Shown here one piece after another: positions 1 to 50,318 of a stretch of DNA of 50,318 nt; the stretch's first letter is position 1; the number at the start of each line of letters is the position of its first letter. The notes beneath the pieces were generated by a model that was given only the letters and a program-made list of their open reading frames with translations, was not told where the DNA came from and searched no databases. Where the stretch lies: the IMG/VR virus record IMGVR_UViG_3300031999_000035, positions 1 to 50,318 of that record; one strand, 5' to 3'. Made by a program: the position numbers and the translations under genes. Source of the DNA: a virus. Taxonomy: Duplodnaviria > Caudoviricetes.

Positions 1-254
1 AGGTCTGCCCGCTCCATTTGCAAAGCTCCCTTCCAAAACTTTCGAGGTGAACGCATCTTTGTAAGCTTGAGATAAGTCCCAGCAGGTCGATGTCATGCCT
101 AAGTTGGATGCTGCCAGTAAGGTATTACCGCTGCCGCCAAAGGGTACAAGAACTCTGCCGTGAGGAGGGGCAAAGCACTCTAGCACAGCCATCATCAAGT
201 CGACAGGGCGTTCGGTTGGATGCACCTTGTGGTCTGCATGGACTGGGGGAAAGT
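1..254. repeat. Terminal direct repeat / circular assembly overlap (copy 1)
   Basis: Identical to 50065-50318 except position 127 (A) vs 50191 (G). It falls in the middle of a gene, so it indicates circularity rather than a physical terminal repeat. Confidence 0.95.
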
Positions 255-1320
255 TAAATATATTGCTTCTTCCTTGCTTATAAAGAACCGCATTGCCCTT
301 ACGAGCATAGAAAAAGGGCTCATAGCAAGAAGCCATGTAGCGGTCAGGCCACATAGTTTGACCAAAAGGCTTAGTCCATATAGCAGGATTACAGAAGGAG
401 AAGTTATGCTTCTTTAAAAGATCTTCAATAGTGTGATACCAGGGATGCATGCCAAACCATAGAATTAGCCATCCATCACTGAGAAGGAGTCTCTTAACCT
501 CAGCAATAAGCTTATCAAGAAAGTCTGAATATCCATCTTTAGCTACCTCGTGATAGTCTGCTAGGTTGGTGTCAACTCCCTTCTTGTGTGTTGCTATATC
601 TATAGCATAATCTGGATCTACCTCGGCCACGTGAAAGGAACGAGATGGGAGTTCTGCTGCTCCAGCAAAAAAGTCTCCAACATGGTAGTTGGCTATTAGC
701 TGGCGTTTAAAGTCTGCTTGATTGTCTCTAGCCAAGATTATATCAGCCCGCTTGGTTAATTCAGAGCGAAGATAACTCTCCTCAATTCGCTTGAACTTTT
801 TAAGAGCCTCAGTGGCTGTCTTACACTCAGCAAGGGATGGAACTACATCAAGGGCATTAGCTATTTCGAGTTCTCGTTGGACTGTTGCTCGACTAACACC
901 AAAGAGAATAGCTGTGTCACTTTGACTATGACCACCACCAGAACCGTGTTGCTTGCCATACTTTTCCTCGTAAAGGGCATGGACTCGTTTGATTGAGTTG
1001 GCACGCTCAACAAAGGTTAGGTCCTCTCGGTTAATATTCTCAGCGAGTTCCGCTGCTTCATGGTCATACACATCGAGAGGCGGGTAGACGCTAGCTGGCG
1101 TGTCAATCCAGCCAAGGGATATAATGGCTATCATTCTACGTCCCCCTGCTACCAGTAAGTAGCCTGAGCCGTCTAGCTTCTCCTCAATTACAGGAGGATG
1201 CATTACACCACGCTCTTTAATATCAGCAGCAAGTTCTTCTATTCCGCTGTATACTTTTCTAGCGCGCTGCCCAAGGTCTATAGAGTCTATTAATACAGTC
1301 TTCTGTACTGGGAATATCAT
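1..1320 (-). CDS. ParB-like N-terminal domain + HTH + DNA amino-methyltransferase (beta-class N4C/N6A) fusion, 440 aa; stop codon lies across the junction at 50062-50064
   Basis: Manual translation from ATG 1320 (RBS GGAGGT): MIFPVQKTVLIDSIDLGQRARKVYSGIEELAADIKERGVMHPPVI...LLVAGGRRMIA (ParB GxRR), AENINREDL, HTH SQSDTAILFGVSRATVQREL, motif IV-like VDPDY, HPTERP, motif I VLVPFGGSGNT. The ORF track misses it because it runs off the window edge. Confidence 0.9.
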   Translation of the reverse strand, partial: MIFPVQKTVLIDSIDLGQRARKVYSGIEELAADIKERGVMHPPVIEEKLDGSGYLLVAGGRRMIAIISLGWIDTPASVYPPLDVYDHEAAELAENINREDLTFVERANSIKRVHALYEEKYGKQHGSGGGHSQSDTAILFGVSRATVQRELEIANALDVVPSLAECKTATEALKKFKRIEESYLRSELTKRADIILARDNQADFKRQLIANYHVGDFFAGAAELPSRSFHVAEVDPDYAIDIATHKKGVDTNLADYHEVAKDGYSDFLDKLIAEVKRLLLSDGWLILWFGMHPWYHTIEDLLKKHNFSFCNPAIWTKPFGQTMWPDRYMASCYEPFFYARKGNAVLYKQGRSNIFNFPPVHADHKVHPTERPVDLMMAVLECFAPPHGRVLVPFGGSGNTLLAASNLGMTSTCWDLSQAYKDAFTSKVLEGSFANGAGRP

Positions 1321-2422: not shown

Positions 2423-2449
2423 AACTCCTACCAATTATTGGCAAGAGTT
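2423..2449. repeat. 27-bp dispersed palindrome, copy 1
   Basis: AACTCCTACCAA-TTA-TTGGCAAGAGTT, 3 nt downstream of the SSB stop codon. Confidence 0.9.
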
Positions 2450-3469: not shown

Positions 3470-4366
3470 TTAAGTGATTTTAGGTTTATCTTCCCATGAT
3501 TTACCTGCTTTCTTCAGTAGTTCTCTGATGTTTGGTTCTTCATATTGTGCAAATGTAGTCCCTCCCATTCTAGTCTTTGCCTGATAGAGACCATCGCTGT
3601 GAGTTAGAATTTGATGCTTAGGTCCTTGAGAGCTGCTCTTTACTATCATTACGTAGTTCTCATCAAACACCAGCGGAAATTGCATTGCTAACTTTCCCCA
3701 CATTAGCATATCAGCGTGCTGATTTACCACGTTTCCTTCATCATTTTTCTCCGTTATAAATGTTAGATGTCCTGTTACTAGGGTATGACAGGGAAGAGAC
3801 ATAATGTCTCGCTTTAGGATGTTTGCTGCCTCAAGCTGTTGATGGAGATAATCAGACTCATAAGGATTACCGCCAGCGTGAGGCCTTACGCCCTTGCCTT
3901 TCCCTGTCTTCATAATCTGTCCCATGAGAGCAACCACCCAGTTTGTAGCGCTGTCGATGCTGTAGGTTCCGATGTAATCGAAGTAGCCATTCGCTCGCTT
4001 CTCGGTGAAGGACCTTTCCCATCGGCGGTAAGTGAACGGAGCATCCCAGTCGTCGTTCTCGTACCGCTCGATAAAGACATCTCCGTTGGCTATCAGCGGC
4101 TGGAGAGCAGCAGTTGTAGTTCCTCCTGGGTCGAAGGAATCTATATGCACTGGAGTCGGACAGGTTGAAAGAAGTTGGGTCTTTCCAGAGCCATGAACTC
4201 CAGCCACAAGAATGTTGCTGTAAATAGAGGAACTCCGGCTGTAGAGTTCCCGTATCTTAGCTATATGCTGTTTTACGATAAGAAGTTTTTCTTCGTTCAT
4301 TACTTCACGCTCCTTCCCCGATGTGTTTAGCAGGTCACCAAACCACTCATAGAACTTGTAGAACAC
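3470..4366 (-). CDS. AAA_24 / Sak4-like P-loop ATPase (start may be ATG 4300)
   Basis: Walker A GVHGSGKT, Walker B-like YSIDSAT, C-terminal AKTR; lies between a nuclease and an SSB. Confidence 0.8.
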   Translation of the reverse strand: MFYKFYEWFGDLLNTSGKEREVMNEEKLLIVKQHIAKIRELYSRSSSIYSNILVAGVHGSGKTQLLSTCPTPVHIDSFDPGGTTTAALQPLIANGDVFIERYENDDWDAPFTYRRWERSFTEKRANGYFDYIGTYSIDSATNWVVALMGQIMKTGKGKGVRPHAGGNPYESDYLHQQLEAANILKRDIMSLPCHTLVTGHLTFITEKNDEGNVVNQHADMLMWGKLAMQFPLVFDENYVMIVKSSSQGPKHQILTHSDGLYQAKTRMGGTTFAQYEEPNIRELLKKAGKSWEDKPKIT

Positions 4367-6109: not shown

Positions 6110-6432
6110 CTACTGCCCTCCTGCATTAGTTTAGATAAAACATTAAACTTGACATCTCTCACAATGTCGAGAATCTGCTTTCTTCCCCAGTTTGTCTTAC
6201 TGCCCATGCGAGCATCAAGAGCATCCTCGAAGGCATTAAGAGCAGCCACAATCGCCTCTGCTTTTGTCATGTTTCTTCTCCCTTCTATTGCATCTGGGAA
6301 AACTTGAGTACCAAATTTCCAATTTAGGTGAAAGCGGTTGATAAAACCCTGAGTCATAATGATTAACTCACCAAAGGTCTTTGCCTGAGAGTAGTCATGC
6401 CCACCAGCGTTGATTATGAAGACCTTAGCCAT
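6106..6432 (-). CDS. Hypothetical protein (possible fusion; internal start at 6270)
   Basis: ATG 6432 downstream of an AGGAGG; second in-frame ATG 6270 with a GGGAG RBS. Confidence 0.55.
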   Translation of the reverse strand: MAKVFIINAGGHDYSQAKTFGELIIMTQGFINRFHLNWKFGTQVFPDAIEGRRNMTKAEAIVAALNAFEDALDARMGSKTNWGRKQILDIVRDVKFNVLSKLMQEGSR

Positions 6433-7644: not shown

Positions 7645-8028
7645 TTATTCCTGCGCCTTGAGACTTGCAAGACGCTCCTCGAGTTCCTTGATAACATCCC
7701 TCTTTGTTGCAGCGCCGCTGTTGATTTTTGCGATGATGCCGGCGTAGATGTCCTTCGGCTTGCGCTCTACGCCAATCAGCGGAACATAAGCCTGTCCAAC
7801 CTGAATAGCCTGGGCATCTGTGTACTTAAAATTCCCAGCCTCATCACGTGCTTGGAGAGCTGCTCGTGTTACCCCGGCACACTTGATGGTCGCCATCTGA
7901 TCGAACAAATCACAGACAACCTTCTCGCCGAAGGCTGTAACCTTCTCGGCAAGAGTATCACCCCCGAAGTCTCTTTCGAACTCCACTTCACGGTCTGCTT
8001 TCGGCGCTGATACTGACATGCTTCTCAT
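7645..8028 (-). CDS. Hypothetical protein (127 aa)
   Basis: ATG 8028 with AAAGGAG RBS; the upstream extension in the ORF track runs through palindrome copy 2 and is probably not translated. Confidence 0.75.
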   Translation of the reverse strand: MRSMSVSAPKADREVEFERDFGGDTLAEKVTAFGEKVVCDLFDQMATIKCAGVTRAALQARDEAGNFKYTDAQAIQVGQAYVPLIGVERKPKDIYAGIIAKINSGAATKRDVIKELEERLASLKAQE

Positions 8029-8082
8029 ACTTGCTCCTTTCGTGTTGTGTTGTATTGCGTTGTGCCCAGGCGGGCAGTGTTT

Positions 8083-8109
8083 AACTCCTGCTAATTTTTG
8101 GTAGGAGTT
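8083..8109. repeat. 27-bp dispersed palindrome, copy 2
   Basis: AACTCCTGCTAA-TTT-TTGGTAGGAGTT; overlaps the TAA of the minus-strand ORF 8108-8272. Confidence 0.9.
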
Positions 8110-8272
8110 ACTTTGTACCTTTTGCTTTTGCCATGAAATATAAGACACCCCCAAACCAAGTAACAAGAATAGTTACGGCAATTACAGTAAGTATAGTTCT
8201 TAAGCCTGAATCACGCTGTTGCAGGGCGTAAATTGCTACCCATTGCAGTGAGTCTGTTATTGCTTGTGTCAT
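8108..8272 (-). CDS. Small membrane protein (54 aa, MTQAITDSLQWVAIYALQ...TILTVIAVTILVTWFGGVLYFMAKAKGTK)
   Basis: Manual translation; one clear TM segment followed by a basic tail. Confidence 0.6.
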   Translation of the reverse strand: MTQAITDSLQWVAIYALQQRDSGLRTILTVIAVTILVTWFGGVLYFMAKAKGTK

Positions 8273-9642: not shown

Positions 9643-10026
9643 CTATTCCTCTAATAAGGAGGATATTTCGCTGGCTCTTTTCTCAAATTCCGCTGTTTGT
9701 TTTGGCCTATCTGCTATTATATCTTCTTCTACCATAATAGCTTCTCTAATTCCCCTTCCTTTTGCAAACTGTCCCATCGGGAAGCCCTTGCTTGCTAATA
9801 TCTCACATGCGTTGTTTACACTTTTCGGTCGCAATGCTTGGTATTGTTTAGCTACAGCCATTATACAGGCTTTTACAATAGCGCTTCTGTTTCCGCTGAC
9901 CTGCACGCCAGCGGCCTCCAAAGCTAGAACCGCTGTTGCTACGTCTCTAATATCCACCCACGCCTGAACTGTAATATTAGGCCCTTCCATCTGGGTCACT
10001 CCATTGAGTTTCGCTGTTATTTCCAC
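9643..10026 (-). CDS. Hypothetical protein, possible ribbon-helix-helix regulator
   Basis: ITVQAWVD strand, a helix, then GNRSAIVKACI resembling RHH helix B. Confidence 0.55.
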   Translation of the reverse strand: MEITAKLNGVTQMEGPNITVQAWVDIRDVATAVLALEAAGVQVSGNRSAIVKACIMAVAKQYQALRPKSVNNACEILASKGFPMGQFAKGRGIREAIMVEEDIIADRPKQTAEFEKRASEISSLLEE

Positions 10027-10224
10027 CTAATACATCACGAGCGCTATCACTAGGTCTGTAATATCCACGGTTGCTGTATTATTGCTTAATGTCTTTATAT
10101 CCAACACGTTGTATATTTCGATTAGCTTTAGAGTTTCTGCATCTTTCACAATCAGCCCTACAAATCTCTCCCCAGTGTCAGGTTCTGTTGTATCTTTTAG
10201 TGTAACGGATACGAGTCTTGCCAT
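10027..10224 (-). CDS. Hypothetical protein
   Basis: AGGAGG RBS. Confidence 0.65.
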   Translation of the reverse strand: MARLVSVTLKDTTEPDTGERFVGLIVKDAETLKLIEIYNVLDIKTLSNNTATVDITDLVIALVMY

Positions 10225-10335
10225 TTTAAACCTCCTGAGTTTCGCTGTCCTATCCGAGGAGCAGGCCCACCAGCATCTGGTGTGATATGCGATTATTACA
10301 GCGTCCGCTGATGAGCCCGCCCAGGTCGGTTATGT

Positions 10336-10506
10336 TCAATCTTTATCCTCCACCGTGATTGTTACGTAGAGAACTCCTCCATCCTTGTTGATTCCCTTTA
10401 CTATAAACGCCGCCCCGTCGTATGACACGACTCTTGGCGTGAAATCCTCATCGAGAGGAACCAAGGTCTCTCGTTTCCCCGCACCTAAGAACCATTTGAT
10501 TTTCAT
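10336..10506 (-). CDS. Hypothetical protein (56 aa, MKIKWFLGAGKRETLVPLDEDF...)
   Basis: Manual translation; GGAGG RBS; first gene after the promoter at 10565-10593. Confidence 0.65.
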   Translation of the reverse strand: MKIKWFLGAGKRETLVPLDEDFTPRVVSYDGAAFIVKGINKDGGVLYVTITVEDKD

Positions 10507-10564
10507 TGTCTCCCTCCAGGTTATTCATTTATGTATGAGCGCATCTCGCTCATTTAATATATAC

Positions 10565-10593
10565 AATATATGCAATTCCCCCGTCCCTTGCAA
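10565..10593 (-). promoter_or_regulatory. sigma70-type early promoter
   Basis: TTGCAA-17 bp-TATATT on the minus strand with AT-rich sequence upstream; inverted repeat ATGAGCG-N5-CGCTCAT (10535-10553) just downstream. Confidence 0.75.
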
Positions 10594-10632
10594 CATTTAT
10601 TTTTAGTTCCATTTCGGCTCCGAAACAATCCA

Positions 10633-10927
10633 TTCTACGTTCTATATTCTATATTCTATATTCTATATTCTATATTCTATATTCTATATTCTACGTGTGT
10701 TGCCTATACCATTTGATTCATTTTTATCAAATAGTTTACTTATTAAATATCTTATTTATCCCCTTAAGCGAAGGAATATTAGATTATTTATATATATATT
10801 TTTTATTATATATAAATCCCTACTCTGTTAAAAATGCACTTATTTAAAATGCACTTATTTAAAAAAACGAATCAAATGGGGGTATGTACATACGTAGAAA
10901 ATAGAAAATAGAAAATAGAATATAGGA
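10633..10927. repeat. Symmetric iteron/AT-rich element, putative replication origin
   Basis: 9 tandem heptamers TTCTA(TA/CG) at 10633-10695 face an inverted array of 4-5 heptamers at 10893-10927; inverted CCATTTGATTC boxes at 10709-10719 and 10869-10879; very AT-rich core. Confidence 0.7.
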
Positions 10928-10964
10928 TTATTTTAATCAAATCCATTATCTTATCGGAATTCAT

Positions 10965-10991
10965 AACTCCTGCCAATTTTTGGCGGGAGTT
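10965..10991. repeat. 27-bp dispersed palindrome, copy 3
   Basis: AACTCCTGCCAA-TTT-TTGGCGGGAGTT, between the origin-like element and a terminator. Confidence 0.92.
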
Positions 10992-10998
10992 TGAAATT

Positions 10999-11021
10999 AA
11001 AAAGCGGGAGATTAATCCCGC
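10999..11021 (-). terminator. Intrinsic terminator
   Basis: GCGGGA-6nt-TCCCGC followed by TTTTT on the minus strand, downstream of the 11040 stop codon. Confidence 0.75.
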
Positions 11022-11039
11022 CTTTGCTTAATATTAGGT

Positions 11040-11582
11040 TCATCTGTTCATCTTCGTTTGCTTCAGATTTTTCTTCTCGAACATTGTGGCGTATTTCATT
11101 AAGGTTTCTTGTTCATCAGCGCCCGCCTCTATCTCCTTAGCAATCGCCACAAGATGCGGAGCTACCTTCACAGCGCCGTATGCTTTGAGTAGTCTATCAA
11201 GAACCTTGCCTGTCGGGCTGATTTTCTCCCGTGCGCCTCTCTTTGCTGCTTCGATAGTAGCACTGAATACCAGCGGCTCTGCGAGTTTCGTCTTGAGGGT
11301 GTCATATCTTTCCTCAAAAGAACCTCTTCCGGCAAGCGGTCTAAGTGTTGATGCAATCGCAACGTTGACATCCTTGACTGCATGACTCATAATCGCCTTC
11401 GGCACATTCTTGAGGTCTTCTCCCTCGAGCATTTCAACAGTTACGTCAACCTTGACAGGTATGCCTTTTCGATAAGGGCTGTCTTCATCAACAGCGCTCT
11501 TATTAAGATAGTCCAAATACCCCTCAGGTTTTGTCGTAAAGTTGACTTGATAGGTATTTCTACCATTAATTACGTATTCCAT
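11040..11582 (-). CDS. Hypothetical early protein (180 aa)
   Basis: GAGGTG RBS; lies in its own transcription unit between a promoter and a terminator. Confidence 0.75.
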   Translation of the reverse strand: MEYVINGRNTYQVNFTTKPEGYLDYLNKSAVDEDSPYRKGIPVKVDVTVEMLEGEDLKNVPKAIMSHAVKDVNVAIASTLRPLAGRGSFEERYDTLKTKLAEPLVFSATIEAAKRGAREKISPTGKVLDRLLKAYGAVKVAPHLVAIAKEIEAGADEQETLMKYATMFEKKNLKQTKMNR

Positions 11583-11942
11583 TTGTTCACCTCTGGTTTA
11601 ATTGTTATCTTGATTCTATCATGGTTTTAAACTCTCCCCATGTCATACCTGCTGCTACAGCAAGCGCCATTATACTTGCAAGCGCTTGTTTACCACGTTC
11701 TTCTTCTGGTAAATTATCAATAGCGTTAATTAGACCGCTGATAAGTGTATCCAGTGCTTTATCCATGTTTCTGTTCCCGTTCCCGAGGTGAACAGATGAA
11801 CCCTATTCCCGTTATTTTCGATATGGTAATCATCGGTTTACCTCATGCACATTTTCTCACCTATGTGGTCCTTTGTGCATGTCTAGTCCCATCAAGACGC
11901 TGGTCGTCTTTTCCCATATCACATTGTCTCATTATGTTCCGG

Positions 11943-11965
11943 CGTTCAGCTCCGGCATACAACCT
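11943..11965. repeat. 23-bp direct repeat, copy A
   Basis: CGTTCAGCTCCGGCATACAACCT; 21/23 identical to 12203-12225. Confidence 0.8.
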
Positions 11966-11997
11966 CCGGTGTATGTGCTCGGTAAATCATTAATGAT

Positions 11998-12026
11998 AAC
12001 ATAACACATTGTGGGAAAATTGTCAA
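11998..12026 (-). promoter_or_regulatory. sigma70-type leftward promoter
   Basis: TTGACA-17 bp-TATGTT with an extended TG motif; AT-rich UP-like region. Confidence 0.8.
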
Positions 12027-12202
12027 GGTTTATTTTCAAAAACATTAAAACATTTTAACATAAGAATATTCCACGCTGGAATAATGCACATGAGCGCAAT
12101 GACCACCCGGGCAGGGGAATTTCAAGATTTTCCCTGTATCCCTCTCCACTCCCCAAATTCCAGAAAATCAAGACATGGATCTACTTCAATCATCAACTTC
12201 TA

Positions 12203-12225
12203 CGTTCAACTCCGGCATATAACCT
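12203..12225. repeat. 23-bp direct repeat, copy B
   Basis: CGTTCAACTCCGGCATATAACCT. Confidence 0.8.
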
Positions 12226-12281
12226 AATTAATTGAGCTGTGCATGGATTTAATTTTGAGCAGGTAGGAGAGAACCAAATCC

Positions 12282-12310
12282 TTGACATCTGCATAATTAT
12301 TAGGTATATT
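12282..12310 (+). promoter_or_regulatory. sigma70-type rightward promoter for the packaging/structural block
   Basis: TTGACA-17 bp-TATATT, followed by a GGAG RBS and ATG 12335. Confidence 0.8.
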
Positions 12311-12334
12311 GTCAGCACAAATTCGGAGAATATT

Positions 12335-12922
12335 ATGGGAAGGTTTAGGATAAGACCAAAAGTGCTGAGTCGTAAGTATCAGGTGCAGGGCATCTGGGAA
12401 AAGCATCATGAGATCAAGCGTTTAGAGCTGGTTGGAATCACTTCTAATAAAGTGATTGCAGAGATGCTGGGAGTTACTCCGCAGAATGTCTGTGATATTC
12501 GAGGCAGCGAATTGTATAAGCGGGAGCTTCAAGCAGCGAGTTTCGCTAAAGACTGTGCTTCTTTTGAAGTTGCTCGGGCTATCGAGGAAGAAGGCCCAAA
12601 GTGCCTTTCGCTGCTGACAGCGATTCGAGATAATAGAGTTGAAGAGATTGGAGAATCAGCGCCTCTTCCTCTTCGTGCCCATATCTGTGAAGATCTGCTG
12701 GACAGAAATGCAAAGAGTGCAAAGGTTAAGCAGATTCAGGGAGAGTTTAAGCATGCTCACCTAGTGGTTGGAACAACCCTTGAGAAAATCAAAGAGAGAG
12801 CAAGGGAAGTTCAGAGTTATATAGCAGATGCTATGATTGAGGAATTGAAATCTGACTCAGCAATCAACGAAGTTGATTGTATGCAGAGTAATGCTAACGC
12901 CAACGAGGTCTGTAATGCCTGA
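12335..12922 (+). CDS. HTH protein, candidate terminase small subunit
   Basis: HTH SNKVIAEMLGVTPQNVCDIR plus a helical body; first gene of the packaging strand; start reassigned to 12335 from the promoter and RBS. Confidence 0.6.
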   Translation: MGRFRIRPKVLSRKYQVQGIWEKHHEIKRLELVGITSNKVIAEMLGVTPQNVCDIRGSELYKRELQAASFAKDCASFEVARAIEEEGPKCLSLLTAIRDNRVEEIGESAPLPLRAHICEDLLDRNAKSAKVKQIQGEFKHAHLVVGTTLEKIKERAREVQSYIADAMIEELKSDSAINEVDCMQSNANANEVCNA

Positions 12923-13079
12923 GAAAGATATCTGGGATTTGGAGTTGCATGAGGTGCTGGAACAGCGGCCTTATCTGCATGTAGTGAGAGTGCCAGGCGG
13001 CTGGCTTTATGTTCATCATCACAGCGGAGCGAGTGAGAGTGTAGCATTTGTTCCTTTCGTGAAGAAGAGGGAGGTCTAA
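12915..13079 (+). CDS. Hypothetical small phage protein
   Basis: GAGG RBS; VRVPGGWLY...FVPF. Confidence 0.6.
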   Translation: MPEKDIWDLELHEVLEQRPYLHVVRVPGGWLYVHHHSGASESVAFVPFVKKREV

Positions 13080-13080
13080 T

Positions 13081-13239
13081 ATGCCTTGGACTCAGCGCTT
13101 TAAGCTTCTCGGGCAGCTCTCTATTGCAGTGCTGATAGCTCCTTTTATCTTGTGCATCTGCTTAGCTCTTGCCTTTATGTGCGCTGCTATTGGCTATGAC
13201 ATGGATGAGCTTGAGGGGAGTTATCAATGCCTGAAATAA
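13081..13239 (+). CDS. Small membrane protein (52 aa)
   Basis: Manual translation; GGAGG RBS; long hydrophobic stretch. Confidence 0.55.
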   Translation: MPWTQRFKLLGQLSIAVLIAPFILCICLALAFMCAAIGYDMDELEGSYQCLK

Positions 13240-13400
13240 AGAAAGGTGAATCTGAGCAGAACTATGTCAGCCGTTGTATAGCTCATTGTATCAAGAACGA
13301 GGGTCTAACACAAGAACAGGCCGCTGGCAAGTGCTATGGTATGTATAGAAACCACAAAAAGGGTAGTTCGATGGCTCGACATCTTGGAGGTGGAAAGTGA
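13227..13400 (+). CDS. Hypothetical protein (57 aa, MPEIKKGESEQNYVSRCIAHCIKNEG...QAAGKCYGMY)
   Basis: Manual translation; GGGGAG RBS; GTGA coupling to the next gene. Confidence 0.7.
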   Translation: MPEIKKGESEQNYVSRCIAHCIKNEGLTQEQAAGKCYGMYRNHKKGSSMARHLGGGK

Positions 13401-13876
13401 AAAAGTTATGGTTATTTCCTGCTTTAGTTTTAGCAGGCTTGATAGTTTGTCAGCTTCAACCTATCTTTGGTGCTGTCGTTGACTTAAGATCAAGAATTGA
13501 TGGGACTTCGGCTTATTCCAACGCTGATTCGATGGAATTCACTGATGTTGGAAGTGCTAGCTATGCAGGCTACTCTGATACTGTCAGCGTCGCTGGGGCG
13601 GAGTTTATCTCTGTAGACTTTATCCTTTCCCGAAATGGTAAGACTACAGCGAATTGCGCTATTCAGCTTCAGGGTTCCAAGGACACCGTTCATTTCATAA
13701 ATACTGATTCTGGTAACGCATCTATTACAGTTACAGCTGCTAGTGCTGCTTTTGCCACCACTATCACTTTCCCTTATGCTCCGGTTTATACTTACTATCG
13801 TTTATATGTAGATAATGACACGCTTTTCAGTTCTATAGCAAAGTGGAAGGTAGGAGGGCGGACTAATGCGCAATAG
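13397..13876 (+). CDS. Beta-sandwich protein with N-terminal signal peptide
   Basis: MKKLWLFPALVLAGLIVCQLQPIFGA leader; beta-rich body (IQLQGSKD...YYRL). Confidence 0.7.
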   Translation: MKKLWLFPALVLAGLIVCQLQPIFGAVVDLRSRIDGTSAYSNADSMEFTDVGSASYAGYSDTVSVAGAEFISVDFILSRNGKTTANCAIQLQGSKDTVHFINTDSGNASITVTAASAAFATTITFPYAPVYTYYRLYVDNDTLFSSIAKWKVGGRTNAQ

Positions 13877-15353
13877 ACTGACATGGGCGCTAATTATAGT
13901 GGGGTTAATTGTAGGTAGCTTGTTATTTATTAGTCAGCTATCTAATGCCCAAGTTCCCAATGCCCATAATCTTACTGGTGTCCAGCGAGAGGTTGCTAGC
14001 CCAACTACAGGCAGTTATGGTAAGATTTTGAAGTGGAATCCTATTACAGGATTATGGACTGCACAGAATGATAGTGTAGGAACAATGACGACTATAACCA
14101 CTGATTCTTTAGCGGTTATATATGTACGTGCAAGTGGAGATACCTTATACTTCCGCACAAAAGCAAGTGTGTGGATGATGAAATTGACAGGCACTAATGT
14201 CAATTTTGCAGCTGACCCAGTTGTTGCAAATATAACTGCATGGATGGATTCTACTAATTTTACAAATGACGGTATTGGGAACGAAGATCTTGCAGTTAAT
14301 AGTGTTAGTACGACCGAAATAAGAGACGCCACGATTGATAGTGTTGATGTTAAAGATGCAAGTCTTGCTGTTGGTGATATTAGTAATGGTGCAAATGGGT
14401 TTGCTTTAAAGCTCGCTATGACTGATTCCTTAGTATTAAGACTGTTGAAGACTGCGTGGATAGACTCTCTTAACGCTTATATTTCTACCTATGCTAAGAC
14501 ATATTTAGATGATGCTAACGAAAGTACGCTTAAGGCGACTTTAAATCTTGAAGCGGGTACAGATTACAATGCTTACAGTGTTAATATGGACACTGATGGT
14601 ACAGATGACATGCTCAAAGCTGCTTTCCCTGATTCTGTTGTAGCAGGAATTGCACGTGATACCACAAAGCAAGCTGCTGACGCCACACTTACAGACATAG
14701 CAGATGGAACTATAGCAGAGAACCTTGTAAATACTGCAAATCCGTGGGCAGACAACGAGATAGCAAGTTCTTCTACTTGGAATGCTGCAATGCCTGCGTC
14801 AGCGTTTCCTGACTCCATGAATAACCCTCATTCAGACATTGATATTAATGGTGGCGCAATAGATGGGACACCGATAGGTGCTAATACTAAAAGCACAGCA
14901 GCGTTTACTACTTTAAGTGCTGATAGTTCTTTCACTGTAAGTCATGGTACTCCTTGGGATATGACAGATGGACAGTATCAAGGACAGTTGGTAGTAGCAA
15001 AAGCGCATGAAGCTCTTATATTCGGTAATGTGTGTTTTATGAACACAGATGGGGAGTATGCTAAAGCTGATGCAGACTCTGTTGAAACAATGCCTGGACT
15101 TGTAATGGCACTTGCATCTATAGGTGCTGATGCTTATGGATTGTTCCTGCAGACGGGATATATCTGTGAGAGCGATTGGACAACTGTTCAGACAAAAGGT
15201 GCTCTTGTGTATGTTGGAAATACCCCAGGATTACCAACAACAACGGCTCCAACCGGTGCAGCAGATCAAGTTCAAGTCCTTGGGTATTGTATTGGGACAG
15301 ATATAATGTATTTCAGATCTGACTGGACTCTTGTTGAGGTGCCAACTCCATGA
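13866..15353 (+). CDS. Fibre-like/virion-associated protein with N-terminal signal peptide
   Basis: MRNRLTWALIIVGLIVGSLLFISQLSNA leader; Thr/Asp/Ala-rich shaft with repeated A[WFM]xDS; DINGGAIDGTPIG; C-terminal capsid-cement/fibre-like domain (AKADAD...GALVYVG..PG.PTTTAP...VQVLG). Confidence 0.65.
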   Translation: MRNRLTWALIIVGLIVGSLLFISQLSNAQVPNAHNLTGVQREVASPTTGSYGKILKWNPITGLWTAQNDSVGTMTTITTDSLAVIYVRASGDTLYFRTKASVWMMKLTGTNVNFAADPVVANITAWMDSTNFTNDGIGNEDLAVNSVSTTEIRDATIDSVDVKDASLAVGDISNGANGFALKLAMTDSLVLRLLKTAWIDSLNAYISTYAKTYLDDANESTLKATLNLEAGTDYNAYSVNMDTDGTDDMLKAAFPDSVVAGIARDTTKQAADATLTDIADGTIAENLVNTANPWADNEIASSSTWNAAMPASAFPDSMNNPHSDIDINGGAIDGTPIGANTKSTAAFTTLSADSSFTVSHGTPWDMTDGQYQGQLVVAKAHEALIFGNVCFMNTDGEYAKADADSVETMPGLVMALASIGADAYGLFLQTGYICESDWTTVQTKGALVYVGNTPGLPTTTAPTGAADQVQVLGYCIGTDIMYFRSDWTLVEVPTP

Positions 15354-16603
15354 AGAAGCTTTTACTATTACTATTATTAATGTGTATCCCTGTATGGGCA
15401 CAGAAGCTCTCCGATAGTGATTTGTCTAACGCAGCAAAAAGTGCTGCTGTTGGAGAGGTATTGTCAAAATATGACAACATAGAAGTTAGTAAAGCCGCTG
15501 ATGGAAAGTTACAAGCAAAGGTGTACTCAAGTAATCATTATGAAGTAAGTGGCGCTCCGCTTGTTCAGTATGATAGTGAAACAGGTGAGATTGTTGCTAA
15601 GAGTAGATATGTCAAATGGATTCCTGATGATGTTACAAAAGCTATTCCTGTTGAGCGAAGTGTTGGTAATACTGGGGTTAAAGAAGAATATACACTTGTT
15701 GATGATAAGATAACGAAGTTATCATGGACGCTTGAGACAAATGCAACAGTTGTTTGGAATGAGAGTGAACAGAAGCTAACCTTTAAGGGTGCTAATAGTG
15801 CTTATATGTTTGATACACCGAAGCCTACAGCTTGGGATAGTAATAGAAAAGATGTTAAGATTGATGCAACATTCGTTAAGGATGTCCTTACATATGTAGT
15901 TACATTTGATGGTAGTGACGTATTTCCTGTAATAGTTGACCCGACGAGTGTGACGGCGACTGGAGATGGAAGTGCTTACGGTCCTCCTGACACAAATAGT
16001 GACGTTGCCAGAGATTCTGATGGATCAAGTTATTTTACATCTTGGTATGTTGGAACATATTTATCCGCCACTTATTACAAATATTATAGGGGATTTGGTT
16101 CTTTTGCGATACCAAATATGAGTGCGCTTAATTCAGCAACATTTATGTTTTACGGTATGTCTAATAGCTCTATAGTAGATTTTGAGATATACTTACATAC
16201 ATCTACTTACACGGCACCTGTTAGTGCGGATGATTTTATTGTATTTGACGGTAGACGAGCAGCTATGACACATAATGGTACGATTCTAAATGATGTATGG
16301 AATTCAAACGGTTTTGCGCTTGACTGGAATACCATTTACTTCAATGCTGCCGGACTTGCTGCTATTCTTGCTAAAAAGAATAGTACGTTCAAGATGGCAG
16401 CAATATCAAAAAGGGATTATATATTCACAACACCAGAAGATGAAGAATATGTTGTTTTCTATGGTTCTGGAACATCTGGCAAGGAACCTTATCTATCAAT
16501 AACATTTACACCGCCTGGTTTTGCTGGTAAAGTATCAGGTGTTAGTGCTCCTGCGAAGGTATCGGGTGTAACATCACCATTAAGAATTAGTGGCATTCAA
16601 TAA
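15350..16603 (+). CDS. Secreted-type/virion protein with signal peptide and a DNRLRE-like carbohydrate-binding domain
   Basis: MKKLLLLLLLMCIPVWA leader; FPVIVDP linker; YRGFGSFAIP...SATF...KEPYLSITF; C-terminal KVSGV repeats. Confidence 0.65.
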   Translation: MKKLLLLLLLMCIPVWAQKLSDSDLSNAAKSAAVGEVLSKYDNIEVSKAADGKLQAKVYSSNHYEVSGAPLVQYDSETGEIVAKSRYVKWIPDDVTKAIPVERSVGNTGVKEEYTLVDDKITKLSWTLETNATVVWNESEQKLTFKGANSAYMFDTPKPTAWDSNRKDVKIDATFVKDVLTYVVTFDGSDVFPVIVDPTSVTATGDGSAYGPPDTNSDVARDSDGSSYFTSWYVGTYLSATYYKYYRGFGSFAIPNMSALNSATFMFYGMSNSSIVDFEIYLHTSTYTAPVSADDFIVFDGRRAAMTHNGTILNDVWNSNGFALDWNTIYFNAAGLAAILAKKNSTFKMAAISKRDYIFTTPEDEEYVVFYGSGTSGKEPYLSITFTPPGFAGKVSGVSAPAKVSGVTSPLRISGIQ

Positions 16604-16606
16604 CAT

Positions 16607-16633
16607 AACTCCTACCAATTTTTGGCGGGAGTT
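16607..16633. repeat. 27-bp dispersed palindrome, copy 4
   Basis: AACTCCTACCAA-TTT-TTGGCGGGAGTT between stop 16603 and the RBS of 16647. Confidence 0.92.
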
Positions 16634-16646
16634 GAAAGGAGTCCAA

Positions 16647-16841
16647 ATGGGAGCGTCTCGAAAGTGGTATCAGAAAAAGACCAACTGGTCTATTGCTGTT
16701 ATTGTTATTAATAATCTAGTTCCAATAACAATGATAGTGCCCTACATCGGTCTTCCGTTGGTAGTTGTTGTTAATGTTATAGCAGGTGCTTTTGGTGTGT
16801 ACTCTGTTGCAGACCGTGCTGGTAAACCTCCGGAGGCATAA
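16647..16841 (+). CDS. Putative holin (2 TM)
   Basis: AAGGAG RBS; KWYQKKTNW followed by two hydrophobic helices. Confidence 0.55.
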   Translation: MGASRKWYQKKTNWSIAVIVINNLVPITMIVPYIGLPLVVVVNVIAGAFGVYSVADRAGKPPEA

Positions 16842-17101
16842 TGGCAGATCCTGAATCTGTTTTAGGTGTAGGTCTGGCCATTCTTGGAATAGGAGGTCCT
16901 GCTACTGTGGCACTATTAAGACTATGGCATAATAAGAATAGTGGGAGCTGTGTAACCCCCGGACAGTGTGACACTCGACATGAGGCCCAGGATAAACTCT
17001 TTGAGTCTCGCCTCGAGACCCTTGACCAGAAAATTGTCACCGTTGATACTAAAGTGACAACAATTCTCGCTATTGTAGAAGCAAGATGGAGGCCAAAATA
17101 A
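16841..17101 (+). CDS. Membrane-anchored coiled-coil protein (holin/antiholin/XhlA-like)
   Basis: N-terminal TM segment, VTxxQC motif, heptad C-terminus. Confidence 0.5.
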   Translation: MADPESVLGVGLAILGIGGPATVALLRLWHNKNSGSCVTPGQCDTRHEAQDKLFESRLETLDQKIVTVDTKVTTILAIVEARWRPK

Positions 17102-20707: not shown

Positions 20708-20718
20708 AGGAGTTGAGA

Positions 20719-21054: not shown

Positions 21055-21058
21055 CTAA

Positions 21059-21331
21059 ATGGCTGCTGTAGCTATAACAACAAGCTCTCGAGACACGATT
21101 CTTCGTAAGGTCAGAGACCTTGTGGATGAACTCATCGCTGTTAATAACAGGGCGATTGAGTGGGATGCAGAGATGGATGATTTGAGCTCTACTGAGGCTA
21201 CCACTATCGACGCGCTTCTAGCAGGAGGCACAAGCATGGCGGCTCAAATCAGCGGAATTCTTGCGGGCTCGGTCACTGTTCTAGTCAACAACGTGGCGAC
21301 GACACTAAGCTGGACTCACACAGAAGGATAA
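21059..21331 (+). CDS. Hypothetical protein (paralog of 20719-21054)
   Basis: GGAG RBS; similar to the previous ORF. Confidence 0.7.
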   Translation: MAAVAITTSSRDTILRKVRDLVDELIAVNNRAIEWDAEMDDLSSTEATTIDALLAGGTSMAAQISGILAGSVTVLVNNVATTLSWTHTEG

Positions 21332-21356
21332 CTCCTACCAAAAATTGGTAGGAGTA
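21330..21356. repeat. 27-bp dispersed palindrome, copy 5
   Basis: AACTCCTACCAA-AAA-TTGGTAGGAGTA; overlaps the upstream TAA and abuts the terminase RBS. Confidence 0.92.
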
Positions 21357-21364
21357 AGGAATAA

Positions 21365-22885: not shown

Positions 22886-22893
22886 GAGGTAGA

Positions 22894-25976: not shown

Positions 25977-25978
25977 CA

Positions 25979-27044: not shown

Positions 27045-27047
27045 TAA

Positions 27048-27545: not shown

Positions 27546-27551
27546 CTCTTA

Positions 27552-27578
27552 AACTCCTACCAATTTTTGGCGGGAGTT
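27552..27578. repeat. 27-bp dispersed palindrome, copy 6
   Basis: AACTCCTACCAA-TTT-TTGGCGGGAGTT (identical to copy 4), between stop 27545 and start 27594. Confidence 0.92.
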
Positions 27579-27593
27579 ATCGAAAGGAAAAGG

Positions 27594-27962: not shown

Positions 27963-27973
27963 GGAGGTCTAAG

Positions 27974-28948: not shown

Positions 28949-28959
28949 GGAGGACTGTA

Positions 28960-36712: not shown

Positions 36713-36739
36713 AACTCCCGCCAATTATTGGTAGGAGTT
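36713..36739. repeat. 27-bp dispersed palindrome, copy 7
   Basis: AACTCCCGCCAA-TTA-TTGGTAGGAGTT between stop 36707 and the AAGGAGG RBS. Confidence 0.92.
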
Positions 36740-48993: not shown

Positions 48994-49398
48994 TTAAACT
49001 CCCGCCAATTTTTGGTAGGAGTTATACAACCTAGCGCTCATACCTGCACTGTATCTTACATTGTTTATTGTTCTTATCATATTATATATTGAAGCTGTGG
49101 GCTCTTCACAGAAGAATATCCTCTTGTCTTGCAGCGCAGCAAAAGCTATCTCCCTCCTCGTTGAGTCTCCAATATAGCCATTCACATTTATTACTTGGAT
49201 AGCATCTGACATCATAATCTTCTGCATATGAACTGCGTCGAGCATTGCCTTAGTCTCGTCGGTTGTAGCTAGTTCGTCCGCGTGGGTGAATGTAGTGAGA
49301 GATATAACGAGCCAGCCTTCTTCACCAAGGCGTTGAGCTTCCCTGATGAATTCTACTTTGAATGAAGTTGAGCCACAAAGAGTTATAACCGGTGCCAT
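48994..49398 (-). CDS. Nucleoside 2-deoxyribosyltransferase-like / DUF4406-like protein
   Basis: ITLCGSTSF, HMQKIMMSDAIQVIN..GYIGDSTRREIAFA; GGAGG RBS. Confidence 0.65.
   Translation of the reverse strand: MAPVITLCGSTSFKVEFIREAQRLGEEGWLVISLTTFTHADELATTDETKAMLDAVHMQKIMMSDAIQVINVNGYIGDSTRREIAFAALQDKRIFFCEEPTASIYNMIRTINNVRYSAGMSARLYNSYQKLAGV
48997..49023. repeat. 27-bp dispersed palindrome, copy 8
   Basis: AACTCCCGCCAA-TTT-TTGGTAGGAGTT; forms the last nine codons of the upstream gene, just before the polymerase. Confidence 0.92.
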
Positions 49399-49813: not shown

Positions 49814-50081
49814 TTTCTTCCTCCTTGATTTTGGCGAGAGCCATCGTGAGACGAACAAGGGCATGCTCGAGGTCTTCCTTTGCTAGTTCCTCTTTTAATA
49901 TAGGAGAGCTAACCATACAGTTAGTAACATGCTGCAACGCGTGTTGAAACTGCATTGGGTAGCTTAGTACTCTCCACCTCCCAGCCTTTCCTTTGTTAGC
50001 ATTTCTTACCATTACCTCCACTATAGTTTTCTTCGCTATTTCACACAGCAGTAGGGTATCACTAAGGTCTGCCCGCTCCAT
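49788..50081 (-). CDS. Hypothetical protein, weakly resembling the dATP/dGTP diphosphohydrolase (DUF5664) domain
   Basis: VEVMVRNANKGKAGRW...FQHALQHV...EDLEHALVRLTM parallels the GAxKY..NW...RH...HLAHA pattern. Confidence 0.4.
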   Translation of the reverse strand: MERADLSDTLLLCEIAKKTIVEVMVRNANKGKAGRWRVLSYPMQFQHALQHVTNCMVSSPILKEELAKEDLEHALVRLTMALAKIKEEENAAKNSSG

Positions 50082-50318
50082 TTGCAAAGCTCCCTTCCAA
50101 AACTTTCGAGGTGAACGCATCTTTGTAAGCTTGAGATAAGTCCCAGCAGGTCGATGTCATGCCTAAGTTGGATGCTGCCAGTAAGGTATTGCCGCTGCCG
50201 CCAAAGGGTACAAGAACTCTGCCGTGAGGAGGGGCAAAGCACTCTAGCACAGCCATCATCAAGTCGACAGGGCGTTCGGTTGGATGCACCTTGTGGTCTG
50301 CATGGACTGGGGGAAAGT
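50065..50318. repeat. Terminal direct repeat / circular assembly overlap (copy 2)
   Basis: Duplicate of 1-254; encodes the C-terminus of the ParB-methyltransferase. Confidence 0.95.

Follow-up and report, generated by a model that had tools for sequence, protein, structure and literature searches.

A ParB-methyltransferase fusion of phages and the dispersed palindromes on which it is predicted to dock

The phage genome considered here encodes a protein, P0001, in which a ParB-type N-terminal domain and a helix-turn-helix (HTH) are fused to a beta-class DNA methyltransferase (MTase), and it carries eight dispersed palindromes on which that protein is likely to dock through its HTH. The prediction of docking comes from comparison of related phages, where one residue of the HTH changes together with one base of each phage's own palindromes. 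What would follow docking is less certain. A scheme in which the ParB-type module and its MTase dock on the eight sites, then probably spread from them and mark the phage's own genome has, in our judgment, about an even chance of being correct.

Results

The genome and its fusion gene

The window (the whole stretch of 50,318 nt that was analyzed) ends as it begins: bases 1-254 are matched exactly by 50065-50318 (100% identity, repeat family D1). With the duplicated end removed, 50,064 bp of unique sequence remain, and the window is a circular phage genome of about that size. The open reading frame (ORF) of the fusion gene occupies all of 1-1320, and its stop codon is found at the far end of the window, just before the duplicated segment. 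The first-pass annotation, made from this one genome, had proposed a 440-aa ORF hidden across the assembly junction, and that is what the repeated ends and the position of the stop confirm. The gene and its parts are as follows.

1..1320, minus strand: ParB-MTase fusion gene, encoding P0001, 440 codons (ORF listing, translation, Pfam/PHROGs/NCBIfam, AlphaFold2 model)
50062..50064, minus strand: TAG stop of the fusion gene, across the assembly junction, just ahead of the duplicated end
50065..50318, no strand: duplicated end, the overlap of a circular assembly, exact copy of 1-254
1033..1248, minus strand: ParB N-terminal (CTPase-fold) domain, residues 25-96 (Pfam PF02195)
1135-1146, minus strand: GGRR, residues 59-62
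1018-1041, minus strand: ENINREDL, residues 94-101
844..924, minus strand: HTH, residues 133-159 (helices 133-140 and 144-159, secondary structure of the model)
889-891, minus strand: codon of R144
31..687, minus strand: beta-class N6/N4 DNA methyltransferase domain, residues 212-430 (Pfam PF01555, Foldseek, PDB, motifs)
607-618, minus strand: motif IV, DPDY, residues 235-238
127-141, minus strand: motif I, FGGSG, residues 394-398

The order of domains in P0001 (ParB_N, then HTH, then beta-class MTase) is the three-part fusion that had been proposed, and searches of PHROGs and NCBIfam agree on it with Pfam. The Pfam models of HTHs that match residues 129-151 score below their cut-offs; both helices of the HTH are nonetheless present in the AlphaFold2 model, whose mean pLDDT is 87.7, as the suggested check by structure prediction had called for. 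A search with a library of defense systems returned matches only to generic type II or orphan MTase models.

No ParA had been evident, and indeed none of 60 ORFs scanned against PHROGs matches a ParA family. The ParA-binding motif [LFI]G[KR]G[LFI] (LG-R/K-GL) is likewise absent from the translation of P0001. A single-protein scan of IMG/VR gave no close relatives of the window, and a megablast of 10 kb of the window against cultured phages gave no match. A protein identical to P0001 is encoded on a second contig (L242).

The ParB-type N-terminal domain

PF02195 (ParB_N) matches residues 25-96 of P0001 with 27.6 bits, above its cut-off of 26.3, making P0001 a member of the ParB/Srx superfamily, and the profile of the fusion family matches PDB structures of Noc, ParB, and KorB. 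The domain had been described as having an intact GGRR arginine patch and an ENxxREDL box. Both are there (GGRR at 59-62, ENINREDL at 94-101), and with them the box II GxRR arginines and the box III ENxxR, but the patch is not intact in one respect: the family's GgRR aligns with the GERR of Noc, and the Glu of GERR is replaced by G60 in at least 90% of the fusion family. In the available text of a study of ParB-like proteins, that Glu is named as a CTP-hydrolysis residue of Myxococcus xanthus ParB (PMC13229309). In box I, the window has His41 where the family consensus has Gln, and P0001 thus lacks both the catalytic Glu and the box I Gln of a CTP-hydrolyzing clamp. It shares with such clamps the placement of the HTH directly after the N-domain. 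The C-terminal dimerization domain of ParB is absent, residues 212-430 being MTase instead (Pfam, Foldseek).

Seven residues of the domain (G59, R61, R62, E91, E94, N95, and R98) are invariant among 32 aligned relatives. The invariance of R61, R62, E94, N95, and R98 argues that the nucleotide pocket is in use.

The methyltransferase domain

In the C-terminal half, N6_N4_Mtase (PF01555) matches residues 261-424 at 60.2 bits (cut-off 26.7). Motif IV lies ahead of motif I, hence the beta-class permutation. By Foldseek, this half resembles CcrM (7.5e-14), M1.HpyAVI, and M.BceJIV, with TM scores by target of 0.57-0.81. Motif IV of the window, DPDY (codons GAT CCA GAT TAT), departs from the catalytic pattern (D/S)PP(Y/F); it is DPPY in 29 of the 32 aligned sequences, the others being DPPF, DSPY, and the window's own DPDY, one each. 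A DPPY motif IV points to N6-adenine, and judging from these relatives, P0001 probably has N6-adenine specificity. The best PDB sequence match of the MTase half is an N4-cytosine enzyme with SPPY. Within the alignment of 32 sequences, the MTase domain is the conserved part of the fusion protein.

Eight palindromes in the window

The palindrome motif (in IUPAC code, allowing up to three mismatches) occurs at eight places of 27 nt in the window, giving 16 strand matches as compared with 0.00 in 100 dinucleotide-preserving shuffles. The eight palindromes noted in the first-pass annotation are thus real.

2423..2449, no strand: palindrome 1, AACTCCTACCAATTATTGGCAAGAGTT, between two minus-strand ORFs
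8083..8109, no strand: palindrome 2, within the stretch by which a greedy ORF call (7645-8166) is extended at its 5' end (median length of that ORF's family, 120 aa)
10965..10991, no strand: palindrome 3, in a repeat-rich region separating divergent gene blocks; a terminator-like hairpin (11004-11021) begins 13 nt later
16607..16633, no strand: palindrome 4, 4 nt past the stop of ORF 15350-16603
21330..21356, no strand: palindrome 5, 8 nt ahead of the large terminase gene, which starts at 21365
27552..27578, no strand: palindrome 6, 7 nt past the stop of ORF 27048-27545
36713..36739, no strand: palindrome 7, between a 1097-aa ORF and a 458-aa ORF, the latter preceding a 2272-aa gene
48997..49023, no strand: palindrome 8, 25 nt upstream of the start of the DNA polymerase gene (48972, minus strand), overlapping the 3'-terminal 9 codons of an ORF of 141 aa

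Neighboring sites are 2.9-12.3 kb apart, much as first estimated (about 3-12 kb). The spacing has a CV of 0.46 and is more even than chance (P 0.025 under a uniform null, P 0.009 under an intergenic null), which fits coverage of the genome. The exact motif of the window has no match in IMG/VR. Of four window sites scanned for promoters, none has a promoter-like sequence adjoining it; one weak match (9 of 12) overlaps the site at 10965.

A palindrome may be read as double-stranded DNA or may act as a hairpin, and the two arms of the sites bear on which is the case. Over 35 palindrome families, the arms within a site agree at variable positions less often than shuffled arms do (525 identities vs 562.0 +/- 9.6, z -3.85). 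Mismatches of the G.U type number 46 on the sense strand vs 68 on the antisense strand, and 181 mismatches are transversions. Identical arms are found in only one of the eight window sites. Because the arms show no compensatory pairing, the palindromes are double-stranded protein sites rather than hairpins. Rfam has no match to them, none of the four palindromes scanned was called terminator-like or has a T tail, and the orientation of the loop is independent of the direction of transcription. On the arm statistics, the lack of an Rfam match, and the lack of a terminator call, the reading of the sites as RNA hairpins or terminators was rejected.

Palindromes in related phages

Searches for relatives of the fusion returned 255 matches; among the 120 listed, 119 have both Pfam domains, with lengths of 429-487 aa. 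The family comprises at least 781 representatives of 50%-identity clusters (E<=1e-30). In 80 of 82 loci, a DNA polymerase gene lies just downstream of the fusion gene. Every well-covered relative carrying the fusion has a dispersed palindrome family with arms of its own sequence, all in a common register: an odd center, CT or GA/GT at positions 11-10, variable bases at 9-4, and an A/T-rich stretch at 3-1. A occupies position 3 in 50 of 61 phages and position 2 in 51, and only A or T is seen at position 1. The specific bases are therefore those at positions 4-11, with about 7 bp free in the middle. Possession of such palindromes is characteristic of the fusion-bearing phage group. A conserved center with diverging arms would fit local action rather than sliding. 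In two phages (L039 and L023), a palindrome stands 12-13 nt upstream of a promoter-like TTGACA-N17-TATAxT, an arrangement that fits an operator role.

With a detector that takes odd-centered sites only in new loci, no palindrome family was detected in Mel-JY34 (L002), L015, L043, L075, L262, L314, or L306; 24 loci were seeded with half-sites entered by hand from the consensus of relatives. All phages were sampled by way of the fusion gene or the palindrome motif, which makes the fusion gene a core gene of the group, so co-occurrence cannot separate the fusion from other core genes. A screen of presence and absence for another protein linked to the palindromes, covering about 20 kb around the fusion gene, brought no family to prominence; it was flawed in that most of the "negative" loci turned positive with an improved detector.

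Covariation of the HTH with the half-site

Covariation was sought first in 52 phages and then in 61 non-redundant ones. Plain permutation z-scores were dropped, because a deep split between clades at half-site positions 9-11 governs them, in favor of bias-corrected scores at positions 9-4 combined with independent contrasts. When 422 columns were compared with 13 positions in the 52 phages, residue 144 and base 6 formed the pair with the highest APC-corrected score. Residue 144 is the first position of the recognition helix (144-159) in the AlphaFold2 model. Residues 143-145 and 134 covary with half-site bases, and of the ten top covarying columns, four fall within the Pfam HTH (P 0.0011) and seven within residues 118-160 (P 5.7e-6). 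When seven core proteins are compared, bases 7, 6, and 5 each have their best column at residue 144 or 145 of the ParB-MTase.

The association amounts to a rule. His144 goes with G at base 6 in 12 of 12 phages and Arg144 in 7 of 8 (the window, with A/G, being the odd one out), making 19 of 20 for the two residues together, while any other residue goes with T in 40 of 41, the exception being the sole Gln, which goes with A. Arg and His are known to prefer G, and Gln to prefer A, and the rule for residue 144 agrees with these preferences.

Shared descent alone is unlikely to account for it. On a tree from which the HTH columns were left out, residue 144 and base 6 each change 15 times. All eight independent pairs are concordant (p 0.0078; as the pair was chosen as the best of 5,486, the sign test alone fails Bonferroni correction), and in the 52-phage set without the window, the figure is seven of seven (p 0.016). 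Among 226 columns, residue 144 ranks first and is the only one with eight of eight contrasts. Out of sample, the rule for base 6 held in 8 of 9 new metagenome phages with a palindrome family, the miss again being Gln with A. A protein 70% identical to P0001 (P0002, on a 51-kb contig) has Asp at residue 144, for which T is predicted at base 6 of its sites.

A further rule, pairing Met145 with A at base 5, is not supported: 9 of 9 phages obey it, but only three changes in the tree underlie it, with two contrasts in the same direction, none opposite, and one showing no change (p 0.5).

The link between fusion and palindromes, which at first rested on their presence together in one genome, thus gains comparative support from 61 phages, and the check then suggested, whether variants of the HTH go with variants of the motif, comes out in its favor. 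The covariation supports docking of the fusion on the palindromes, and by comparison the eight sites are predicted to be its cognate loading sites on the same replicon.

Discussion

A possible mechanism

In the scheme introduced at the outset, P0001 would combine a nucleotide-binding N-domain and an HTH with a beta-class MTase, and the eight 27-bp palindromes would be its double-stranded, parS-like docking sites. Two copies of the HTH would read the two 11-bp arms, S143-R144-A145 at the start of the recognition helix touching bases 7-5 of each arm, and docking would gather the MTase on the phage's own chromosome. The N-domains would then most likely bind a nucleotide triphosphate, engage one another to close a clamp, and release the HTHs from the site, whereupon the freed dimer, presumably held together by its MTase domains, could slide along the flanking DNA. 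Eight evenly spaced sites could in this way serve the entire 50-kb genome, and methylation would reach new phage DNA fast and preferentially, either as self-marking or as protection from restriction. The computation shows the domains of the protein, the existence and double-stranded character of the sites, and the link of the HTH to them; dimerization by way of the MTase domain, nucleotide binding, closure of the clamp, sliding, the base and motif methylated, and the biological role are inferred. There is a precedent for the mechanics in KorB, a ParB-family clamp for which the available account describes loading at operator palindromes followed by sliding to targets at a distance (PMC11790492).

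Not all parts of the scheme merit the same trust. Nucleotide-gated spreading of the fusion from its sites, considered by itself, is possible but on balance questionable. The most ambitious version is more tentative yet and must be called doubtful: that the fusion is the first ParB clamp to carry an enzyme, one that loads as a nucleotide-gated ring at evenly spaced palindromes peculiar to each phage, slides, and methylates in cis only the DNA threaded through it, its specificity being set by a simple code at the start of the recognition helix that can be re-programmed (at base 6, G for His or Arg, A for Gln, T for others).

Perhaps, instead, the fusion docks on the palindromes and stays there. 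It might methylate adenines in the A/T-rich center, the HTH serving as a long target-recognition module, or it might act, as KorB does, by binding operators, as a regulator or roadblock where gene clusters begin, the ParB N-domain being a nucleotide-binding or protein-contact module rather than the gate of a clamp. We judge such anchored action unlikely, yet it survives best among the alternatives. The entire evidence for docking applies to it as well. The center of the palindromes is constant while the arms differ, just as the MTase domain is conserved, and bases are specified only to either side of a free middle. The catalytic Glu of GERR is absent, sites lie directly ahead of the polymerase and terminase genes, and palindromes adjoin sigma-70-like promoters in L039 and L023. 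Mutations in the nucleotide-binding residues of the ParB of a phage ParB-enzyme pair were silent in vivo, according to the available text (PMC13229309). What speaks against anchored action is the invariance of the five pocket residues in 32 relatives, and also the even spacing of the sites, for which it has no need. An operator role in particular sits poorly with the four scanned window sites, beside which no promoter-like sequence was found apart from the weak overlap at 10965, and with the sites at 21330 and 36713, which lie 8-14 nt from the next start and so leave no room for a promoter downstream.

It is improbable that the palindromes belong to some other protein of phage or host, or to replication, packaging, or recombination, with the covariation of the HTH reflecting shared descent. 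The status of the fusion as a core gene does leave presence and absence uninformative relative to other core genes, the screen for candidates spans only about 20 kb around the gene, some relatives carry the gene with no detectable palindrome family, and some have a second ParB-HTH paralogue lacking an MTase (L241). But shared descent would hardly yield 15 changes on the tree with every independent pair concordant, nor single out one column of 226, give it (with its neighbor, 145) a higher rank at bases 7, 6, and 5 than any column in the six other core proteins, place it at the opening residue of the predicted recognition helix, and obey textbook preferences of amino acids for bases.

Finally, hairpins in RNA or single-stranded DNA unrelated to the fusion (terminators, processing or stabilizing stem-loops, or hairpin promoters) are very improbable: although the palindromes lie in short intercistronic gaps, after stops and before ribosome-binding sites, could each form a 12-bp stem, and resemble the RNase III sites of T7 in count and spacing, the arm, mismatch, terminator, Rfam, and loop-orientation results above all stand against them, and no RNA polymerase of a phage turned up in the scan of 60 ORFs.

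Relation to known systems

The proposed docking of P0001 on its palindromes resembles ParB and parS in that GxRR and ENxxR boxes of the N-domain are followed by an HTH and the sites are palindromes suited to a two-fold symmetric reader. It differs in that it is not a ParABS system, having neither ParA nor the ParA motif; in the MTase that replaces the C-terminal dimerization domain; in GGRR instead of GERR; and in the sites, which are here 23-27 bp long with a free A/T center, eight in number, evenly spread, and unclustered.

Among solved structures, Noc comes closest to the N-terminal half of P0001: structure 7ng0 aligns to residues 6-200, and 7nfu matches by fold. Noc, too, has many palindromic sites, scattered over a chromosome, but it has a membrane-targeting helix, a dimerization domain, and GERR, and no MTase. 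Plasmid RK2 carries twelve OB sites, the operators of KorB, whose structure 8qa8 is among the PDB sequence matches of the family profile. Its operator palindromes are dispersed over a replicon of similar size, and loading with CTP is followed by sliding, as the available text describes (PMC11790492); KorB, however, has the partners KorA, TrbA, and a ParA, and no enzyme domain. CcrM, M1.HpyAVI, and M.BceJIV match the C-terminal half of P0001 by fold and by sequence, but they have no ParB module, and motif IV of the window is DPDY.

Phage ParB-dependent thymidine dioxygenases also tie a ParB-like protein to post-replicative modification of DNA, and the available text cites, as a hypothesis only, the view that modification is something ParB "directs" to loci (PMC13229309). 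There the two activities reside in separate proteins, the ParB has no DNA-binding domain but does have a C-terminal dimerization domain, and, as noted, its nucleotide-motif mutants are silent. The 17-bp dyads of Cluster O mycobacteriophages resemble the sites: more than 30 dispersed copies of TGTTCGGNNNCCGAACA, odd-centered, mostly intergenic, and placed without regard to which way transcription runs, accompany a gene for a protein with a ParB-like domain (PMC4351075). They belong to another phage group, however, the site is shorter, and the available text reports no MTase fusion.

Fusions of the ParB CTPase fold to N6_N4 MTases have been described as enriched in phages and prophages, "perhaps in anti-defense" (PMC12704722). 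They have the same PF02195 + PF01555 architecture, and P0001 belongs to that class. The available text of that survey gives no DNA target or function and no positive nucleotide binding for the N6N4 fusion, whereas a cognate palindrome family and a residue-to-base rule are proposed here. What the comparison of sequences indicates as new for a known class of fusion, then, are the palindromes found throughout the group, their fixed register, and the rule.

Significance

ParB-fold/MTase fusions are counted among the commonest uses that phages make of the ParB fold in the available text of the same survey (PMC12704722), so a common phage protein with no explained role gains a predicted DNA target. 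A predicted site in each genome, a fixed geometry, and a rule relating residue to base turn its action into a question that can be tested directly. The docking logic may also explain dispersed dyad repeats elsewhere, for example those of the Cluster O mycobacteriophages. If the fusion does not spread, the sites would be a new class of long composite targets of MTases or regulators, punctuating phage genomes. If it does, a clamp worked by the CTP switch would be able to move an enzyme along DNA, which would explain how a phage modifies its own genome selectively, and if the marking is in cis, the phage would mark its DNA as self without methylating that of its host.

The fusion protein and the genome that encodes it

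Bases 50065-50318 of the window exactly repeat bases 1-254. The assembly is therefore circular, and the genome measures 50,064 bp. Its matches to PHROGs families are those of a tailed phage, with structural genes (large terminase, portal/adaptor, major head protein, and an internal-virion-protein-like gene of 2272 aa) and a replication block (family A DNA polymerase, primase, ligase, two exonucleases, and a Sak4-like ATPase). No phage RNA polymerase was found among 60 ORFs scanned against PHROGs, and Megablast of 10 kb of the window found no cultured relative. The 2272-aa ORF (38123-44941), which closes the structural block, matches PHROGs only weakly: families of unknown function at residues 1212-1396 and an internal virion protein at 1887-2097. 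Relatives carry comparable giant genes of 1577 and 1894 aa.

Features of the ParB-MTase fusion
1-1320, minus strand: ParB-MTase ORF, 440 residues (ORF translation)
50062-50064, minus strand: TAG stop of this ORF
Residues 25-96: ParB_N domain (Pfam, above cut-off)
Residues 59-62: GGRR
Residues 94-101: ENINREDL
Residues 129-151: HTH models, weak (Pfam)
Residues 235-238: MTase motif IV
Residues 261-424: N6_N4_Mtase domain (Pfam, above cut-off)
Residues 394-398: MTase motif I

The first-pass annotation had described a ParB N-domain, an HTH, and a beta-class MTase fused across the assembly junction, in a genome with no ParA, and both points hold. PHROGs and NCBIfam concur with Pfam on the domains. 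In an AlphaFold2 model made from 32 relatives (mean pLDDT 87.7), helices 133-140 and 144-159 form the HTH. The same 60-ORF scan against PHROGs found no ParA. Sequence matches of the N-terminal half are to Noc (7ng0, residues 6-200), ParB, and KorB, and those of the C-terminal half to beta-class methyltransferases; Foldseek matches the model to CcrM, M1.HpyAVI, M.BceJIV, Noc, and M. xanthus ParB. Motif IV lies ahead of motif I, which is the beta-class order.

Box II reads GGRR throughout the fusion family, where Noc and ParB read GERR; the Glu of GERR is, according to PMC13229309, a CTP-hydrolysis residue of M. xanthus ParB. The Gln of box I is replaced by His in the window's fusion. Its motif IV is DPDY (GAT CCA GAT TAT, window 607-618), found once among 32 aligned sequences (DPPY in 29, DPPF and DSPY in one each). 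This is unlikely to be an assembly error, because a second contig (L242) encodes an identical protein (100% over residues 1-440). The window's MTase may have altered or reduced activity.

A word-index search with the fusion gave 255 matches; among the 120 listed, 119 have both Pfam domains, at 429-487 aa, many of them on contigs of 42-54 kb. When the search was made exhaustive, 781 cluster representatives (50% identity) came up at E<=1e-30, and nearly all of the best 150 align end to end. In IMG/VR, 315 stretches encode a relative, and the best 80 were kept. Together with two cultured phages, these make up 82 loci, and in 80 of them the fusion is followed on its own strand by the DNA polymerase gene. 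Among cultured phages, the nearest relatives of the fusion are those of Desulfofustis phage LS06-2018-MD01 (38% identity) and Microcystis phage Mel-JY34 (28%). Some relatives have a second, shorter ParB-N plus HTH gene without the MTase next to the full fusion (L241, in record G009 at 36851-37387, where the open frame is of 254 aa; also L154:5-379).

Palindromes in the window and in relatives

The window contains eight palindromes of 27 nt, against none in 100 shuffles, with gaps of 2,882-12,284 bp, in agreement with the earlier count of eight about 3-12 kb apart. The space between called ORFs holds six of them; of the other two, one falls within the 5' extension of a greedy ORF call and one overlaps the last nine codons of a small ORF. 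The gaps are evener than chance (CV 0.46; P 0.025 for uniform placement, 0.009 for random choice among 29 intergenic gaps). The YR step at which the arms vary reads TA in 8 half-sites, CG in 5, and TG in 3, and only one of the eight sites has identical arms.

Dense short tandem repeats lie between divergent gene blocks at 10556-10925: ATTCTAT in 8.9 copies (10632-10693) and TAGAAAA in 4.4 copies (10895-10925), the two arrays forming an inverted pair (41-nt arms, 88% complementary) with repeats of 14-16 nt between them, and palindrome 3 next, at 10965. The region looks iteron-like and may be an origin or control region.

A palindrome family, in 2-10 copies per 20 kb or less, is present in most of the IMG/VR and metagenome relatives for which enough sequence is available; several loci at first negative turned out to have one when searched with the motif of a relative or with a looser detector. 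The Desulfofustis phage carries a palindrome of its own, GCTATGTCCCAANTTGGGACATAGC, nine times. With half-site bases numbered outward from the centre, the register is the same in nearly all families: an odd centre, C/G at position 11, T/A at 10, and variable positions 9-4. At the centre, among 61 phages, position 3 is A in 50, position 2 is A in 51, and position 1 is A or T in all. Three families are even-centred (L011, L036, L069). No family was found in Mel-JY34, L015, L043, L075, L262, L314, and L306, the detector for the newest loci being for odd centres only. The GC-rich Mel-JY34 (L002) has inverted repeats of the type GTAATTC...GAATTAC common to 9144, 35381, and 44031, which might be a diverged version of the palindrome. 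On these comparisons, the palindromes are a hallmark of the phage group that carries the fusion.

A scan of IMG/VR with one common form of the motif found at least 153 stretches. Ten long records whose fetched part was without the fusion gene were checked. Six have the gene elsewhere (one of them at a contig edge, one with an extra MTase-less ParB-HTH paralogue), and in each of the other four the match stands alone in the 12-20 kb fetched, nothing similar being present a second time; completeness is rated at 19% and 34% for two of these four. The 18.8-kb record behind L090-L094, which has eight sites and no fusion gene, is, like other such fragments, uninformative. In the records checked, which are part of the motif-bearing set, no complete genome was found with a palindrome family but without the fusion gene. 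Co-occurrence cannot single out the binding protein, the fusion gene being a core gene of the group.

Covariation of the HTH with the half-site

The discriminating evidence as to which protein reads the palindromes is covariation across relatives, in line with the earlier suggestion that HTH variants be compared with motif variants. The training set comprised 52 non-redundant phages for which the protein is full-length and the family odd-centred, with two or more sites; 24 loci were seeded with a relative's hand-typed half-site, and the consensus was then recomputed from the matches. Over 422 columns and 13 positions, the top APC-corrected mutual-information pair is residue 144 with base 6. 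Residues 134, 143, 123, 124, 128, and 145 are also in the ten best columns, of which four fall inside the 23-column Pfam HTH (P 0.0011) and seven inside residues 118-160 (P 5.7e-6). The outer positions 12-13 have the highest entropy, and appear only once in the 30 best pairs, without an HTH column. When seven core proteins of the same phages were compared, residue 144 of the fusion was best for base 6 (bias-corrected 0.72 vs 0.49 for the next) and for base 7, and residue 145 for base 5.

Of the 18 training phages with His or Arg at 144, 17 have G at base 6; the eighteenth is the window, which has Arg and A/G. Every other residue goes with T (34/34). On a tree made without columns 118-165, there are 13 changes per trait, and the eight independent pairs that lie on supported branches are all concordant (p 0.0078), as are 7/7 once the window is taken out (p 0.016). 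For new data, 80 metagenome-contig loci gave 33 new non-redundant proteins, and scanning the 18 of these loci that were at least 6 kb long turned up a family in nine. Eight of the nine follow the rule, and the miss is Gln with A. Gln in place of R144 occurs with A at base 6 in two unrelated relatives, L321 and L021, and with two cases only, Gln-A may extend the recognition rule by a third letter.

Pooled, the 61 phages give His-G 12/12, Arg-G 7/8, others-T 40/41, and Gln-A 1/1, with 15 changes per trait and agreement in 8/8 pairs. As a guard against post-hoc choice, each of 226 testable columns was split in the way that suited it best. A result of 8 same, 0 opposite, and 0 unchanged, with 61/61 rows agreeing, was reached by residue 144 alone; the second-best column had 5.1, 0.2, and 1.7, with 53/61. 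Residue 144 opens the recognition helix in the AlphaFold2 model. Arg or His to guanine and Gln to adenine are classical major-groove contacts. The L029 site, CTATGGGGAAT, fits what is expected from its L035-like helix. The proposed link between fusion and palindromes thus has comparative evidence in the covariation of HTH and half-site, and the fusion probably docks on the palindromes.

Possible use of the sites

From there the fusion might slide as a nucleotide-bound ring and methylate its own genome in cis, a plausible scheme that we judge less likely than not. In favour of a clamp, R61, R62, E94, N95, and R98 are invariant, the palindromes are evenly spaced, and there is a precedent in KorB, which, according to PMC11790492, loads at operator palindromes and slides to distant targets. 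Against a clamp, or in favour of a stationary role, the Glu of GERR is missing, as is the ParB C-terminal domain, the conserved A/T centre could be the MTase's own target, and promoter-like sequences adjoin palindromes in L039 and L023. Also, mutating the nucleotide motifs of another phage ParB had no effect in vivo, according to PMC13229309.

One clade has four near-identical sigma-70-like promoters of the type TTGACA-N17-TATAAT (L023:251-262, 2176-2203, 4136-4163, 6252-6275). In L023 and L039 (~1250-1280), a palindrome lies 12-13 nt upstream of a promoter of this type, as would suit sites of which some are used in the manner of operators.

That the palindromes are RNA hairpins or terminators is very unlikely: there is no selection for pairing, Rfam has no match for them, and none of the four in window 10000-29999 is called terminator-like. 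The comparison of arms covered the variable positions of 35 families, each of three or more sites, after removal of six loci that were redundant or mis-assigned. Within-site arm identity is 525, against 562.0 +/- 9.6 with right arms shuffled among sites (2000/2000 shuffles at or above the observed value). Transition mismatches readable as G.U number 46 on the sense strand and 68 on the antisense, and 181 mismatches are transversions, with 1,656 cells paired; for a further 139 mismatched cells, the direction of transcription is not clear. From these counts, there is no selection for pairing. The palindromes behave like double-stranded sites that a two-fold symmetric protein reads through degenerate half-sites. 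At 11004-11021, 13 nt past palindrome 3, there is a classical terminator-like hairpin (GCGGGAGATTAATCCCGC, then a T-rich tail), so ordinary terminators of this phage look unlike the palindromes.

PMC12704722 describes the ParB-fold/N6N4-MTase fusion as phage-enriched, with no function assigned, and PMC13229309 quotes as unconfirmed the idea that ParB steers modification enzymes to loci. Our literature search found no paper tying a ParB-MTase fusion to dispersed palindromes. The fusion and its palindromes class with ParB-site systems, and the association is directly testable.
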